This document shows, piece after piece, positions 2,802 to 16,928 of a stretch of 25,725 nucleotides of DNA; the first letter of the stretch is position 1; each line of letters starts with the position of its first letter. The translations under genes and the position numbers were made by a program. The DNA is from Dehalococcoidia bacterium (GTDB lineage Bacteria; Chloroflexota; Dehalococcoidia; DSTF01; RBG-16-68-14): positions 62,001 through 87,725 of the forward strand of contig JBBEBM010000047.1 of NCBI GenBank assembly GCA_040882355.1, written 5' to 3'. Below the pieces are notes generated by a model. That model was given only the letters and a program-made list of their open reading frames with translations, made no database searches and was not told the DNA's origin.

Positions 2802-3335
2802 TCACTGAAGGCGCTTCTCGTACCAGGCGACGTCCCAGTAGCGGTCGAACTTGCGCCCGACGTCGTGCATGACACCGGTGAGCGTGAAGCCGAAGCGCTC
2901 GTGGAGGGCGGTCGAGGCGTCGTTGGGCAGCGTCATGCCCGCGATTGCGAGGCGCAGGTCCTCGTCGCGCACGGCGTCGAAGAGGGCGCCGTAGAGCAGC
3001 GCGCCGATGCCGCGGCCAGTGGCCTCCGGCGCGCAGTAGATCGTGACTTCGATGGTCGTGTCATAGGCTCGGCGGTCGCGGAACTTGTGTGAGCCGGCGT
3101 AGCCAAGCACGACGCCGTCCTGCTCGGCGACGAACAGCCGGTGCGGGCCGCGCTCGGCGAACTGCGCGAGCCACTCCCGGCGCTGCTCGACCGTGTACGG
3201 CTCGATATCGAAGGTGATCGGTGTGGTGAGAATGTAGTGGTTGTAGATCTCGGTCAGGCGCGGCAGGTCGTTGTCACGCGCGTGGCGGACGGTGGCATCG
3301 ATGGCGCTCGCGCTCGTCGGTCGGGAGGCATCCAT
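2802..3335 (-). CDS. GNAT N-acetyltransferase, phosphinothricin/methionine-sulfoximine acetyltransferase (YncA/MnaT) family
   Basis: IYNHYI...ITFD, GRGIG acetyl-CoA loop, LPNDAS.ALHERFGF and GRKF.RYWDV motifs. Confidence 0.9.
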   Translation of the reverse strand: MDASRPTSASAIDATVRHARDNDLPRLTEIYNHYILTTPITFDIEPYTVEQRREWLAQFAERGPHRLFVAEQDGVVLGYAGSHKFRDRRAYDTTIEVTIYCAPEATGRGIGALLYGALFDAVRDEDLRLAIAGMTLPNDASTALHERFGFTLTGVMHDVGRKFDRYWDVAWYEKRLQ

Positions 3336-11812: not shown

Positions 11813-12367
11813 TTAGCCGGTCGCGCGGAGCGGGCGCTGCCGACCTGCGAGGAGGTCGAGCGCGGCCTGGGCCGAGGCCGGCGTGCTCACGCCGAGGGCG
11901 TCCTGAACGGCGAGCCCGTCGCAGAGGGCGAGCAGCGCGCCCGCGGTCGATGAGTCGAAGAGCGCCGTGAGCTGCTCGCGCCACGCGTCGTACGCCTGCG
12001 TGAGCGCGGCGCGCACGGATGCGCTGCGTTCCGCCTGGGCGACGAACTCGACGAAGAGCCGCGCATCCTGCCCGGACGAGCCCAGCGCCTCCACGGCGCC
12101 GCCCAGCCCTGATGAGCGCCGGCTAGCGTCCGCGAGCCGCTGGGTGCGCGCGCGGCCCCAGCCGTCGATGAGCAGGAGCAGCGCCTCCTCCTTCGACTCG
12201 AAGTGGAAGTAGAAGGCGCCCTTGCTCACCTCCGCCGCCTGGGCGATGTCGTCCACAGTCGCCCCCTGGTAGCCGAGTACGGCGAAGACGCCTCGCGCCG
12301 CCTCGATCAGGCGGTGGCGGGTGCGCTCCGCGCGGAGCTGCTGTAGAGGGCCTTTCCTGGCTGTCAT
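11813..12367 (-). CDS. TetR/AcrR family transcriptional regulator
   Basis: TRHRLIEAA...GYQGATVDDIAQAAEVSKGAFYFHFESKE helix-turn-helix. Confidence 0.93.
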   Translation of the reverse strand: MTARKGPLQQLRAERTRHRLIEAARGVFAVLGYQGATVDDIAQAAEVSKGAFYFHFESKEEALLLLIDGWGRARTQRLADASRRSSGLGGAVEALGSSGQDARLFVEFVAQAERSASVRAALTQAYDAWREQLTALFDSSTAGALLALCDGLAVQDALGVSTPASAQAALDLLAGRQRPLRATG

Positions 12368-12567: not shown

Positions 12568-12660
12568 CGTCGACAAAGGGCAAACCCTTCGAAAGAGGGG
12601 GGCGCAAAGCCACGGGCCTACCGCTCGCAAGAGGAGTCAGGGCCGCCGGGCTGCCGAATC
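12568..12660 (+). ncRNA. Cyclic di-GMP-I (GEMM) riboswitch aptamer
   Basis: GGGCAAACCCTTC-GAAA-GAGGGGGGCGCAAAGCCACGGGCCTA...GGCCGCCGGGCTGCCGAA matches the Vc2-type architecture (GGCAAAC, GNRA loop, CGCAAAG junction, GGCCUA receptor). G at the position-20 equivalent. Confidence 0.93.
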
Positions 12661-12768: not shown

Positions 12769-13491
12769 ATGGCCACGCGAGAAGAGACGATCCTGCAGCA
12801 CCTGCCGCTGGTGGCGTTCGTCGTGAACCGGCTCTCCGCCGACCGGGCCCGGACGCTGGGCTTGGACCGCGAGGACGCGATGAGCTACGGGATTGAGGGC
12901 CTGATTCAGTCCGTGGACGCCTTCGACCCCAGCCGGGGCACCAGCTTCGCCAGCTTCGCCGTGCGGCGCATCCGGGGCTCGATCCTGGATGCGATCCGCC
13001 GCCAGGACCCGCTGCCGCGCTCGCTGCGGCGCAGCACCCGCGAGGTGGAGCACACCGCGCAGGAGCTGGCAGCCCAGCTCGGCCGCTGGCCCACCACCAA
13101 GGAGCTGGCAATCCGAATGGGCACGACGCCCGACGCCGTCCAGGAGGTCCAGAAGCATGCCTCGTCGCGCTTTGTTTCGCTTGAGCACGTCCTCCAGGAC
13201 CGCTCGGGCGACGGCGGGAGCCAGCGCTGGGACCCTGTCGACGAGGACGAACGGGGCGACCCGGCGAAAGCTGTCGAGCGGCGCGCCTCGCTCTCGCTCC
13301 TCCAGCTCGCGGTCGACCACCTCAGCGAGCGGGACCGCGCCATTCTCCAGCTTCGCTACGGCGAATCTCGCCCCTTCCATGAGGTGGGCCGCATGCTCGG
13401 TCTCTCAGAATCGCGGGTCTGTCAGCTTCACAAGCGCATCCTGGGCCAGCTTCGCAAGCAGCTCGCAGTGGCGCTGGAGGAAGCGGCGTAG
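12769..13491 (+). CDS. fliA: RNA polymerase sigma factor, FliA/WhiG (sigma-28) family
   Basis: HLPLV, YGIEGLIQSVDAFDPSRG, RIRGSILDAIRRQDPLPRS and region-4 LGLSESRVCQLH; GAGGGG SD. Confidence 0.92.
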   Translation: MATREETILQHLPLVAFVVNRLSADRARTLGLDREDAMSYGIEGLIQSVDAFDPSRGTSFASFAVRRIRGSILDAIRRQDPLPRSLRRSTREVEHTAQELAAQLGRWPTTKELAIRMGTTPDAVQEVQKHASSRFVSLEHVLQDRSGDGGSQRWDPVDEDERGDPAKAVERRASLSLLQLAVDHLSERDRAILQLRYGESRPFHEVGRMLGLSESRVCQLHKRILGQLRKQLAVALEEAA

Positions 13492-13581: not shown

Positions 13582-15063
13582 ATGAACGAGAGGCAATCTC
13601 GGCTGCCGCTCCCGACGAACGGCCAGCGAGAGGCAGGCGAAACGCTCGCTGAGCCTGAGCTGCCCTCGCATCCTGTTAGCCCGACCCAGGCGTCCAGCGA
13701 ACGGCTGAACTGGCGAGTCGCCCTGTACATCGCCCTCGTAGTAGCAGCGGCCGCACTTTGTGTTTGGTACTACGCCCCCCGGACGACGACCGAAGGCTGG
13801 CAGGGCTTCGTCGCGCTGATCATCCTGGCGATCGTCTTCGAGCGTGTCGGCATCCAGATCTACGGCGAAACGCACGTTTCGGCCGGCGTGGTCGCGCTCT
13901 TCGCCATCTCGATCCTGTACGGCGCTCCCGGCGTGACCATCGCTGCGCCGCTGGTCGTGCTGGCGGCGGAGACGCGAACGCGCAGTCCCTGGTACGGCCG
14001 CTTCTTCGACATGAGCAGCTACACGCTGGCGAACGTCGCCTCCGCCCTCGTCTTCCACGTACTGATCGACATCGACAGCGGCGTGGACGGCTGGTGGGTG
14101 CCGGCGGCGATCATCGCCATCGCCGCGAACTACGCGGTCAACATTCCTATCGTGAGCATCGAGGTCAGTCTCGAGTCCGGCGAGTCGTCAGTGGCGGTCT
14201 GGCGAGAGCAGCACCAGTGGCTGGTGCCTTACTACCTGGTCTTCGGACTGCTCGCGCTGGCGCTGGCGACGGCCTACGCGGCCCTCGGCGTCTGGGGGAT
14301 CATGGCGTTCGTGGCGCCGCCGCTCATGATGCGCTTTGCCCTTCACCAGTTCGTGAACAAGACGGAACAGACGGTGCTGGAGCTGAAGCAAAAGAACAAC
14401 CAGCTCGAGGCCGCGAACAGCGACATTCTGGAGATGACGCGCCAGCTCACCGAAACGTATGGTGGAACGCTCGAGGCGCTCGTGCTGGCACTCGACGCAC
14501 GCGATCGCGAGACGAAGGGCCATTCGCTCCGCGTCGCAGATTACGTGATGGCTGTCGCTCGCGAGCTGGGCATGAGGGAGGGCTCGCAGGAGTGGGTCGA
14601 CACCCAGCGTGGCGCGTTGCTGCACGACGTCGGCAAGATCGGCGTGCCTGACCAGATCCTCCACAAGCCGGGCCCGCTCACGCCTGAGGAATGGGACGAA
14701 ATGAAGCGCCACCCGGGCATCGGGCATGAGATGCTGCACGACATCGCCTTCCTCTCTGGGGCTGCCGAGATCGTGCACGCCCACCACGAGCGCTTCGACG
14801 GGAAGGGCTACCCGCGCGGACTATTGGGCGACGAGATTCCCCTTGGCGCCCGGATATTCGCCATCGGCGATACGCTGGACGCCATGACGTCGGACCGGCC
14901 GTACCGGAAGGCGCTGCCGGCGGAGGTCGCTCGCTGGGAGATCTTGCGGCACAGCGGCACACAGTTCGACCCGCAGGTCGTGCAGGCGTTCTTGCTGGTC
15001 TTCGACCAGTTGGCGAAGAAGGCGGAAGAGGACCACGAAGGGGAGCACGTGAGAGCTGCCTAA
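13582..15063 (+). CDS. Membrane-anchored HD-GYP c-di-GMP phosphodiesterase with multi-TM N-terminal sensor and coiled-coil linker
   Basis: About 6-7 hydrophobic helices, then TKGHSLRV, LLHDVGKIG, HHERFDGKGYP, D.LDAMTSDRPYR and GTQFDP; catalytic motifs intact. Confidence 0.93.
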   Translation: MNERQSRLPLPTNGQREAGETLAEPELPSHPVSPTQASSERLNWRVALYIALVVAAAALCVWYYAPRTTTEGWQGFVALIILAIVFERVGIQIYGETHVSAGVVALFAISILYGAPGVTIAAPLVVLAAETRTRSPWYGRFFDMSSYTLANVASALVFHVLIDIDSGVDGWWVPAAIIAIAANYAVNIPIVSIEVSLESGESSVAVWREQHQWLVPYYLVFGLLALALATAYAALGVWGIMAFVAPPLMMRFALHQFVNKTEQTVLELKQKNNQLEAANSDILEMTRQLTETYGGTLEALVLALDARDRETKGHSLRVADYVMAVARELGMREGSQEWVDTQRGALLHDVGKIGVPDQILHKPGPLTPEEWDEMKRHPGIGHEMLHDIAFLSGAAEIVHAHHERFDGKGYPRGLLGDEIPLGARIFAIGDTLDAMTSDRPYRKALPAEVARWEILRHSGTQFDPQVVQAFLLVFDQLAKKAEEDHEGEHVRAA

Positions 15064-15085
15064 GACGGCCCCCAACCAGACAACA

Positions 15086-15117
15086 AGAAGCGCGGCAAAC
15101 GCCGCGCTTCTCTCTTT
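15086..15117. terminator. Intrinsic terminator (probably bidirectional) between the HD-GYP gene and the convergent peptide gene
   Basis: Perfect 11-bp stem AGAAGCGCGGC / GCCGCGCTTCT with a 4-nt loop, followed by CTCTTT. Confidence 0.8.
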
Positions 15118-15146
15118 GCAGCCGTTGGGACGTGCGCCCCGCTACC

Positions 15147-15245
15147 CTACCACCAGCGGCGGACGCCGAGGACGGTGGAGGCGTGCGGCGCGAGCGCTGC
15201 CGCTGCCAGCAGAGCCACCGCAGCTACTGTCCAGATGAGCTTCAT
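15147..15245 (-). CDS. 32-aa signal-peptide-like small protein MKLIWTVAAVALLAAAALAPHASTVLGVRRWW
   Basis: ATG 15245, TAG 15147-15149; SD AAGGAAGGGGG upstream; own promoter upstream and terminator downstream; below the ORF-track size cutoff. Confidence 0.75.
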   Translation of the reverse strand: MKLIWTVAAVALLAAAALAPHASTVLGVRRWW

Positions 15246-15274
15246 TGCTCTACCCCCTTCCTTGCCAACGTTCT

Positions 15275-15317
15275 GACCAGTCAGTCTTGTTCTATGTCAA
15301 CTAGACCGACCTGTCAA
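15275..15317 (-). promoter_or_regulatory. Sigma-70 promoter of the peptide gene with two TetR-type operator boxes
   Basis: Minus strand TTGACA (15317-15312)-N17-TAGAAC (15294-15289). Boxes GACCGACCTGTC (15304-15315) and GACTGACTGGTC (minus strand, 15286-15275) overlap the -35 and +1 regions. Confidence 0.65.
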
Positions 15318-15423: not shown

Positions 15424-16248
15424 CTAGGCGGAATGCTCCCAGCGCTGCCGCCGCCTGTCGCGCTCCAGACGGGCCGCGTTGAGGTCATCGACCGCTGCGG
15501 TGAGGGCCTCGTCGGGGTCCGGCGACTGTGCATCGCACACGGCCATGCCGGCGCAGATGCCGATCCAGAGAGGCGTGCTCCGCTTGCCGCGGCGCACGGC
15601 CACAGAGTCGCGAGCCAGGCGCTCGTGGAGTCGCTGGATGAACGAGCGCGCGCCAGCCGCCCCGCAGTCCGGCAGGACGAGCGCGAACTCATCGTCGCCC
15701 ATGCGGGCCACCATGTCGTTCTGGCGTTTGGTTTCGAGTAGGCAAGAAGTCACGTGGAGCAGGACGCTATCACCGGACGGCGGGCCGAACTGCTCGTTGA
15801 TGCGGGAGAGGTGGTTGATGTCGATGAGCACGACCGCTACGTGGCTACCCGAAACCTCAACGAGGCGGGCTTCCTCCAGTAATCGCTGCGAAAAGAGGTG
15901 GAACGTGGGCAGACCGGTCAAGGGATCGACAGGGTCGGCGCCCGGCTTCAGTTCTGCCAGGTTCGGTACCTGGACGAGCGTGGTCTCCTCGTCGTCTTCG
16001 TCCTCGCGTGGCGCGCGGAGCAGGAGGAATCCAGCACAGAGCAGCAGCAGCGAGATCCCCGCTAGCGCTCCTACCATCTGGAGAGGCAGGTCGAGCAACT
16101 CCTGGACCAGGAAGCCGGCTAGCAGCGGCGTCAAGGCCAGCACGGGCACCAGGACACGCCACAGCGCATCGCCGGACTGGGAACGCCGTCGAACGGTCGT
16201 ACCCGGGCCCGCTACCCGGACTCTGCTTCGCGCGTGTTCATCGCCCAT
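15424..16248 (-). CDS. Two-TM GGDEF-domain protein with degenerate A-site (GDDEF) and intact RxxD I-site
   Basis: DPLTGL, VLIDIN...IN..FG...GD and RQND-MVARM-GDDEF; two N-terminal hydrophobic helices. Confidence 0.88.
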   Translation of the reverse strand: MGDEHARSRVRVAGPGTTVRRRSQSGDALWRVLVPVLALTPLLAGFLVQELLDLPLQMVGALAGISLLLLCAGFLLLRAPREDEDDEETTLVQVPNLAELKPGADPVDPLTGLPTFHLFSQRLLEEARLVEVSGSHVAVVLIDINHLSRINEQFGPPSGDSVLLHVTSCLLETKRQNDMVARMGDDEFALVLPDCGAAGARSFIQRLHERLARDSVAVRRGKRSTPLWIGICAGMAVCDAQSPDPDEALTAAVDDLNAARLERDRRRQRWEHSA

Positions 16249-16320: not shown

Positions 16321-16348
16321 TTGACAGACGACTGGGAGACGCTATGAT
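16321..16348 (+). promoter_or_regulatory. Sigma-70 promoter for the Cys-rich gene and flavodoxin
   Basis: TTGACA (16321-16326)-N16-TATGAT (16343-16348). Confidence 0.6.
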
Positions 16349-16382
16349 GAACGCAACAGCCCTTCCTACGGAGACCCACCTG

Positions 16383-16928
16383 ATGCAGATCGACTGGGAT
16401 AAGACACTCGAGGAGATCCTGGCCGACAAGACGGCCTGCCCGCGCTGCGGCAGCTTCACGGACGACATCGTGGCTGGCTATACGCGTGAGACCTGGGGCG
16501 CCGAATACGCGCCTCGCTGCCAGTTCTGTAATCGCCGCGAAGACTGCGATGCGCGCAAGCTGGTCGTGCTCTGCGAGGGCTGCGCCCGGGAGCTTGGCCT
16601 GCGCTCTCGAAAGGTCGACCAGGAGACCCTGATGTCGATGCTCCTGAACGACTGTCGCAAGGACCTCGAGGAGTGCCTGGACTATCTAGCGGAATACTGG
16701 CAAGAGGACCTGGACGTCCCGCCCGACGAGACGAACAAGCGTTTGGAGGAGTACGATCCGGAGGTCTTTGGCGAGGAGGACGAGGCCCGCCAGCGGCTGG
16801 AGGAGGAGTACCTGACCTACCATCGCTGGTTCCGCGATCACCACCTCCGCCTCCCTGAGCCGGCCTGGCGTGCCGAGTACGCGGAGGAGATCCTGGCTCT
16901 AGGCTACTCGACGCTGCTGGGTGACTAG
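16383..16928 (+). CDS. Hypothetical Cys-rich (probable Zn-binding) acidic protein
   Basis: CPRC, CQFC-x5-C and CEGC motifs plus an acidic helical C-terminus. Start moved to ATG 16383 (GGAG SD) because ATG 16344 lies inside the -10 box. Confidence 0.8.
   Translation: MQIDWDKTLEEILADKTACPRCGSFTDDIVAGYTRETWGAEYAPRCQFCNRREDCDARKLVVLCEGCARELGLRSRKVDQETLMSMLLNDCRKDLEECLDYLAEYWQEDLDVPPDETNKRLEEYDPEVFGEEDEARQRLEEEYLTYHRWFRDHHLRLPEPAWRAEYAEEILALGYSTLLGD

Follow-up and report, generated by a model that had tools for sequence, protein, structure and literature searches.

The window, that is, the whole stretch of 25,725 nucleotides analyzed in this study, bears a 32-codon micropeptide gene that faces the 3' end of a gene for an HD-GYP phosphodiesterase (Table 1). 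In translation, the micropeptide begins with an N-terminal Lys, followed by a hydrophobic stretch of ~22 residues, a proline-bearing motif, and a short tail of Arg and Trp, and the AF2 model is a single helix covering residues 2-31 with a pLDDT of 75.8. The gene lies in an open frame of 49 codons with no in-frame start 5' of the ATG and occurs as a single copy in its own genome. The initial annotation had named this ORF with its translation, both of which were confirmed exactly, and had given it the span 15147..15263; the first boundary stands, but position 15263 is the 5' edge of the ribosome-binding site and the ORF itself ends at 15245.

Table 1. Features of the micropeptide locus (positions refer to the window)
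Feature	Position	Strand	Remarks
TetR-family regulator gene	11813..12367	-	Pfam TetR_N; candidate binder of the operator
c-di-GMP-I-GGC riboswitch	12569..12659	+	Rfam RF03167, 68.3 bits
FliA/WhiG-type sigma factor gene	12769..13491	+	Pfam sigma-70 regions 2, 3, and 4; upstream in the HD-GYP operon
HD-GYP phosphodiesterase gene	13582..15063	+	N-terminal multi-pass membrane domain (MASE9-like); Pfam HD_5, 2.4e-35; convergent neighbor
Bidirectional intrinsic terminator	15085..15112	both	12-bp G+C-rich hairpin, common to the micropeptide gene and the convergent HD-GYP gene
Micropeptide gene, 32 codons	15147..15245	-	From the ORF list; ATG start, TAG stop, 32 aa; coordinates include the stop codon
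Ribosome-binding site	15253..15263	-	Read from the sequence; purine-rich, GGAGG-like; 3' end 7 bases from the ATG
Palindromic operator (putative)	15272..15285		ACTGAC-NN-GTCAG type; just downstream of the -10 hexamer
Promoter	15289..15317	-	-35 TTGACA at 15312-15317, 17-base spacer, -10-like TAnnAn hexamer at 15289-15294
GGDEF-domain protein gene	15424..16248	-	Pfam GGDEF, 8.4e-26; upstream of the micropeptide gene on the same strand, 178-base gap
Cys-rich protein gene	16344..16928	+	194 aa, several CxxC pairs; no Pfam or NCBIfam family

The strong Shine-Dalgarno sequence, the promoter, and the terminator that the initial annotation had assigned to the ORF could all be located, the terminator serving the convergent HD-GYP gene as well. 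A similar ribosome-binding site at equal spacing was found in all orthologues examined. A strict consensus promoter scan of the locus returned 0 sites, and the promoter call is thus based on conservation: the two hexamers are kept in register in 10/10 orthologues of the family to which the window belongs, and in the other families too. As for the terminator, a consensus scan of the minus strand found one terminator-like site against 0.3 expected from shuffles, and the hairpin folds with a z score of -2.9 on this strand (2/200 shuffles equally good) and of -5.2 on the plus strand (0/200). Hairpin terminators lie 3' of the ORF in the orthologues as well. In a search of RNA runs, one soil metatranscriptome run (0.04 share of words) gave a single 246-base contig of a relative, which extends across positions 14995-15238 at a depth of 2.9; contigs from RNA libraries cannot show strand, ends, or transcription, and this contig is no evidence of expression. 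The contig of this close relative differs from the window at 1 of 92 bases in the ORF and at 24 of ~150 bases in the flank, which hints at an additional constraint on the RNA level.

The genes around the micropeptide belong largely to c-di-GMP signaling. Residues 76-240 of the HD-GYP protein matched MASE9 (Pfam PF20972) at 21.0 bits and an E value of 3.4e-4, below the cut-off of 24.3. Of 93 genomes of the order, 78 have the HD-GYP membrane domain (the 93-genome tallies here and below take in one genome flagged as unpublished, G060, which has no match to the peptide). The pair of sigma factor and HD-GYP genes is kept in 27 of 29 loci of relatives, the other two of which end at a contig edge, and the riboswitch precedes the sigma factor gene in 8/8 loci of relatives with leader sequence, including the five without the HD-GYP gene. 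With the riboswitch placed before the sigma/HD-GYP operon, c-di-GMP would control its own degradation together with the sigma factor. Small membrane-associated proteins in a c-di-GMP network with sigma factors are also represented by the CD1980.2 family, which PMC13724677 describes as 58-aa proteins under c-di-GMP riboswitches, multi-copy and confined to Clostridioides difficile. The present gene, by contrast, occurs in a single copy of 6-34 codons under the control of an operator, and the riboswitch here would control the sigma/HD-GYP operon instead.

Two further genes of the neighborhood deserve mention. Among the loci of its family, only this genome has the GGDEF gene, and in two other families (f3 and f5; see below) a GGDEF gene lies beyond the TetR gene. 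The signature of the GGDEF protein appears degenerate in translation, with Asp for the second Gly, and this neighbor may be non-catalytic or of the receptor type. The Cys-rich protein gene, present in 15/16 genomes of the family, was considered as the real partner of the micropeptide and rejected; it is present in five genomes that have no micropeptide gene and is not adjacent in f3 and f5. The match to this protein contains in-frame stops in three genomes (two TAG in one and one TGA each in the other two).

The micropeptide had no counterpart in the curated libraries. Pfam-A gave nothing at its cut-off (the best match, TMEM65, scored 12.1 bits with E = 0.2, the cut-off being 25), NCBIfam 0 families, and the protein atlas a best score of 0.77, under the level of a lead; Rfam did not match any part of the whole unit. 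By tblastn and HMM searches of the loci around the HD-GYP orthologues, however, we identified homologues of 28-34 codons with a strong ribosome-binding site, each of which is convergent with an HD-GYP orthologue and sits directly 3' of it. The profile of these long forms (A2, 15 sequences) detected them in 20 of the 93 genomes of the order, 19 at E <= 1e-4 and one syntenic at E = 0.006. They are distributed over three of the five families of the order, which we designate f1 (the family including the window) to f5: 10/16 genomes of f1 with the window's own counted, 2/2 of f4, and 8/18 of f3. The long forms of f1, f4, and f3 are mutually alignable. Among 401 genomes of the class, eight matched at E <= 0.01, and the three strong ones are all inside the order; the five weak matches in the class outside the order (E >= 1.2e-3) lie inside long open frames, and nothing convincing was found there. 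In 1.84 billion representative proteins, 17 clusters matched the peptide, all of 27-87 aa, so that relatives elsewhere had already been called by gene callers. Altogether, the micropeptide represents an order-wide family of uncultured Dehalococcoidia-like bacteria with no match in curated protein and RNA libraries.

Comparison within f1 revealed selection on the protein sequence. Among the 45 pairs formed by the ten f1 sequences, dN/dS was 0.08-0.49 in 36; eight of the remaining pairs are saturated at synonymous sites, and one has two synonymous and no non-synonymous changes. The mean pairwise differences at the first, second, and third codon positions were 0.32, 0.19, and 0.59, respectively, the third being the most variable. 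The hydrophobic part and the proline motif are conserved within f1 and the tail is variable, with dN/dS well below 1 across the hydrophobic part. A small ORF beside orthologous HD-GYP genes and a dN/dS below 1, both of which the initial annotation had proposed to look for, were thus found. On this comparison of sequences, we regard the micropeptide gene as a genuine gene under selection on its protein product.

The loci beside the HD-GYP genes of f5, f2, and genus g11 of f3 have no long form, and the promoter and the palindrome are still present 3' of the HD-GYP gene. These loci carry, in this order, a strong ribosome-binding site, an ORF of 6-9 codons (mini-ORF), and a hairpin. The mini-ORFs of most f5 loci are 6-8 codons long (consensus F-R-[VI]-x-W); those in g11 and g39, both genera of f3, have 7-8 codons (K-K-x-H-W-W type), and those in f2 have 7-9 (G-W-G-D type). 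An ORF of intermediate length (19-23 codons) was found in genus g29 of f5. A promoter, a palindromic operator, a ribosome-binding site, and a terminator lie beside an HD-GYP orthologue in all five families of the order. We scored 68 orthologous loci by one fixed rule, which required TTGACA at 85-145 bases upstream together with a ribosome-binding site and an ORF of 5-40 codons. Of these loci, 61/68 were positive on the strand convergent with the HD-GYP gene, against 1/68 on the control strand. Seven were missed, among them the window itself and another known positive, both of which have leaders of different length. Trp occurs within the last five residues at 56/68 loci by the same rule and at 0/68 on the control strand. 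The earlier view of the ORF as a dedicated transcription unit is supported.

We further compared 24 mini-ORFs of f5, which were picked by pattern after the independent fixed rule had already found them. Trp is present in 24/24, while Arg is specified by four different codons and Val/Ile by six, the flanks are divergent, and the stop codon is TAA in 20/24. Conserved basic, Trp-bearing C-termini were among the features that the initial annotation had proposed to look for, and most C-termini are indeed basic and/or rich in Trp; in f2, however, the tail is acidic and 2/13 loci have no Trp. Tandem Trp codons occur in the window and in f3. The exact pentapeptide VRRWW, which the initial annotation had singled out, is not conserved, and Trp near the end is the only near-universal residue. 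A likeness of the tail to arrest motifs (SecM and the macrolide +x+ type) was also considered and set aside, as the motif is not conserved across families.

In the tree of sigma factor plus HD-GYP (FastTree, midpoint root), g11, a genus with mini-ORFs, groups inside f3 as the sister of a genus with long forms (support 1.0). Likewise, f5 with mini-ORFs is sister to f1 with long forms, and f4, which has long forms, is placed outside both. We consider it most likely that the helix was lost at least twice independently, with the start codon, the tail, the promoter, and the terminator retained, and it was probably lost in f2 also. Since the helix has been lost repeatedly and the ORF retained, what matters seems to be the tail and not the membrane helix. 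The idea that a short tail is the active part thus finds support of a kind that had not been foreseen: the relatives of 6-9 codons have no hydrophobic part and nearly always keep a Trp near the end.

A comparable pattern is known from cyanobacteria. PatS and PatX, which act on HetR, are encoded by very short ORFs of variable length, in which only the C-terminal penta- or hexapeptide is conserved and active and the N-terminal part is variable and partly hydrophobic. There is no homology to the present peptides, and the tail (RGSGR there, Trp-bearing here), the receptor, and the setting are all different. In size, the mini-ORFs resemble mccA, the 7-codon gene for the microcin C precursor (PMC4231749 and PMC6495379): both are free-standing ORFs (6-8 codons here) with a strong ribosome-binding site, a hairpin terminator, and a short transcript. 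They differ in that no MccB-type modifying enzyme or export genes are found near the present ORFs and in that the C-terminal residue is Trp, not Asn.

Two observations were made in individual mini-ORF loci. The f2 loci (L026-L030 and L115-L122) share a conserved leader hairpin with an AAGGA-type loop, 20-30 bases before a near-invariant ribosome-binding region, which points to a role of this leader as RNA in f2. At locus L018 of genome G035, five tandem G+C-rich, hairpin-like repeats of ~40 bases lie between the mini-ORF terminator and the stop codon of the HD-GYP gene and widen this intergenic region to ~500 bases.

A palindrome follows the -10 hexamer in all families, and other families have, at the position equivalent to that of the window, a perfect ACCGAC-NN-GTCGGT palindrome. 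We also considered the palindrome as an RNA hairpin; with a folding z score of 0.05, it folds no better than shuffles, and it is thus read as a DNA site. In f3, f4, and f5, a TetR gene and the peptide gene diverge from either side of the palindrome, while the TetR gene of f1 has moved to the other side of the operon. For 8/8 of the divergent TetR proteins of the type seen in f3-f5, the best match in this genome is the TetR gene of the window. The upstream region of the window's TetR gene contains no such palindrome. The operator at the transcription start is most likely bound by the TetR repressor of the locus, judging from its position and from the gene arrangement. Among the nearest solved relatives of the TetR protein, the top one is an unnamed TetR regulator (6srn), and CprB (E = 1.4e-10, residues 8-134) and AvaR1 are included; the outer ACATAC arms of the operator are common to the consensus site of CprB/ArpA printed in PMC4150764. 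We take the similarity to CprB and AvaR1 and the ACATAC arms as leads only.

Scanning the genome for the palindrome with <= 2 mismatches yielded 28 matches, among which no regulon could be defined and one other shows the same promoter layout. This second combination of promoter and palindrome is found on contig C75 at ~52633 (locus L067, ~3130-3190), before a gene for a membrane protein of ~560 aa without a Pfam family, which is possibly a second target of the same repressor. Seven matches (C4:25047, C17:62095, C17:135537, C46:10477, C53:73540, C53:73684, and C62:54251) are copies of a conserved element of ~60-70 bases in similar contexts, two of them 144 bases apart; we regard it as an unclassified dispersed repeat, the core of which resembles the palindrome by chance.

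The distribution of the genes in f1 ties the peptide gene to its neighbors. The membrane HD-GYP gene and the peptide gene occur in one and the same set of ten genomes (10/10). Of the other six genomes, G015 is cut by a contig end at the locus, and the remaining five have neither the peptide gene nor the HD-GYP gene; in these, 92-354 bases separate the sigma factor gene from the next gene, and this gap contains no small ORF. The same five have no TetR gene upstream of the sigma factor gene and no palindrome, while the sigma factor gene and the riboswitch remain. According to the tree, the joint losses in f1 fall in at least two lineages. As adjacent genes can go in one deletion, the joint loss of the peptide and HD-GYP genes is weaker evidence than it looks; the TetR gene, which lies beyond the sigma factor gene and was lost separately, provides the stronger argument. 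Synteny and joint loss in the genomes compared thus show the peptide gene to be tied to both the HD-GYP and TetR genes.

Based on the above, we tentatively propose that the gene encodes a TetR-controlled micropeptide of a c-di-GMP module, the basic/aromatic tail of which is active and the helix of which is a dispensable anchor or carrier, acting on the input domain of the HD-GYP protein. The peptide gene would be transcribed from its own sigma-70-type promoter, gated by the palindromic operator with the TetR repressor, and transcription would stop at the hairpin common to the convergent HD-GYP gene. The working part of the product would be the short basic/aromatic tail. In the 32-aa form, the dispensable helix may hold the tail at the cytoplasmic membrane and raise its local concentration, and the tail would act at the membrane interface on the MASE9-like input domain; for MASE9, ligand binding is proposed to occur within the membrane in a preprint (10.1101/2021.11.05.467447). 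In this manner, a signal sensed by TetR could be coupled to c-di-GMP breakdown and, via the riboswitch, to the sigma factor operon. The membrane topology complicates this proposal. In f3 and f4, the N-terminus has two to three Lys/Arg and the tail none to two, mostly one, and these charges suggest that the tail faces outward; with the mini peptides made in the cytoplasm, a site of action common to both forms is not obvious. The link between the peptide and the HD-GYP protein comes from their co-occurrence, and TetR as the target would fit the divergent arrangement equally well. The TetR-type operator on the promoter, which had not been seen in the initial annotation, makes the TetR regulator an equally good candidate partner.

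The main rival to our proposal is accordingly that the peptide is a ligand of the TetR regulator, not of the HD-GYP protein, and relieves the repression of its own gene, either directly or once the long form has been exported and taken up again. Such an auto-inducing loop would resemble SHP/Rgg, ComS/ComR, and PatS/HetR on a TetR scaffold. The precursors of the streptococcal SHP and ComS/XIP pheromones are 17-35 residues long; their N-terminus is basic, their middle part is hydrophobic, and the active peptide, which sometimes contains Trp-Trp, is located at the C-terminus. The layout of our long forms is alike, as is a gene that adjoins, and is controlled by, a transcription factor gene. The divergent TetR genes of f3, f4, and f5, where the peptide promoter bears the palindrome, and the loss of the TetR gene jointly with the peptide gene are in favor of this idea, and so are the quorum-signal receptors CprB and AvaR1 among the nearest solved relatives and the operator arms that match the CprB/ArpA consensus (PMC4150764). 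However, the regulator here is of the TetR family and not of the RRNPP/Rgg type, the phylum is different, and the mini forms have no precursor part. A gene for a receptor of the Rgg/ComR type (HTH plus TPR) was not found next to the peptide gene, the neighbors being TetR, HD-GYP, GGDEF, sigma, and Cys-rich genes. We know of no peptide ligand for any natural TetR protein, and the PDB similarity of the present one is mostly in the DNA-binding domain. The idea also leaves unexplained the strict convergent synteny with the HD-GYP gene in five families, including f1 with its relocated TetR gene. We thus regard a TetR ligand as unlikely, if the most serious competitor.

As a second alternative, the peptide may be an uncleaved one-helix membrane protein that uses its transmembrane helix to dock on the HD-GYP membrane domain, much as MgrB docks on PhoQ. 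MgrB and SafA, both of which act on PhoQ, are likewise one-helix peptides of a few tens of residues, encoded in a unit of their own and genetically tied to a multi-pass membrane signaling protein, and SafA is similar also in that it could connect one regulator (here TetR) to another pathway. There is no sequence relation to either, and the partner here is a c-di-GMP phosphodiesterase of the HD-GYP type, a candidate by genomic context, and theirs a histidine kinase. The single helix of the AF2 model, the purifying selection on the hydrophobic part and the proline motif in f1, and the perfect co-occurrence with the HD-GYP gene in that family are consistent with docking. Nevertheless, the gene has been kept through at least two losses of the helix, which makes the helix dispensable in relatives of the present peptide (f5, g11, and probably f2), and the HD-GYP orthologues of f5, g11, and f2 are accompanied by a peptide of 6-9 residues only. 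Helix docking is therefore a distinctly unlikely explanation.

We judge it to be quite unlikely, too, that the ORF is a regulatory device, either a leader or arrest ORF, in which Trp codon supply or stalling at Trp-stop would set terminator read-through into the HD-GYP antisense, or a dual-function small RNA. Several features can be read in this way: Trp as the sole near-universal residue, with tandem codons in the window and f3, the preference for TAA in f5 (20/24), a unit that always faces the HD-GYP gene, the conserved 5' hairpin in f2, and the near identity of nucleotides between two close relatives. Ribosome-controlled termination is moreover known for the 7-codon mccA (PMC4231749). On the other hand, beyond the terminator lies only the convergent HD-GYP gene, and the comparison with trp-type attenuators found no same-strand target genes downstream, no conserved antiterminator structure, and no Rfam match; the hairpin is at least 35 bases past the stop codon in several loci. 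The conservation of non-Trp residues through synonymous change and a dN/dS well below 1 across the hydrophobic part are also at odds with a device of this kind.

The least favored reading of the peptide as such, and a very improbable one in our view, is that of a Sec-type signal peptide cut by signal peptidase I, from which a pentapeptide is freed as an external pheromone for the HD-GYP sensor, as had been suggested in the initial annotation. The layout indeed resembles n, h, and c regions, the tails and the mini peptides are similar in size, and the second of the two cleavage sites named obeys the -3/-1 rule, with its motif conserved in f1, f4, and genus g29 of f5. Cleavage at the first site, after Ala-Leu-Ala, does not hold, as it has Pro at +1, which blocks signal peptidase I, and the pentapeptide that would be released at the second is not conserved. 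The mini forms have no export signal of any kind, which argues against obligatory Sec secretion. Within f1, the supposed signal peptide is the best conserved part, and only 3-7 residues follow it; a chain of 32 residues furthermore leaves the ribosome before co-translational targeting is possible. Finally, a type I toxin or another small hydrophobic peptide outside c-di-GMP signaling, to which the size, the hydrophobicity, the convergent arrangement, and the common terminator might point, is most improbable for a single-copy gene that shows vertical synteny throughout the order, disappears along with the module, and has mini forms of insufficient length for a membrane span.

Annotation routinely overlooks small proteins, and to our knowledge very few have been tied to c-di-GMP enzymes; nor do we know of inputs to HD-GYP membrane domains such as MASE9. 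In this respect, comparative genomics has yielded a candidate peptide partner that is kept and lost with the enzyme, as well as a defined operator with a candidate repressor; in addition, the natural range of gene lengths, from 34 codons to 6, serves as a deletion series and directs attention to the active part. The question of the partner of MASE9-type HD-GYP proteins becomes testable with synthetic hexapeptides in simple assays of binding and of enzyme activity. Among functional coding genes, the 7-codon mccA is the shortest known to us, and six-codon genes conserved at the amino-acid level would rank among the shortest functional coding genes described. We finally put forward, as a speculation that is rather unlikely in its full extent, a signal system shared by the order: a TetR protein related to butyrolactone receptors would switch on a peptide gene of down to six codons, the Trp tail of its product would tune the membrane HD-GYP protein, and the 32-aa form would be the ancestral, membrane-anchored one. 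If this is true, a micropeptide would connect a sensor of a diffusible signal both with c-di-GMP levels and with a sigma factor under riboswitch control in these bacteria.
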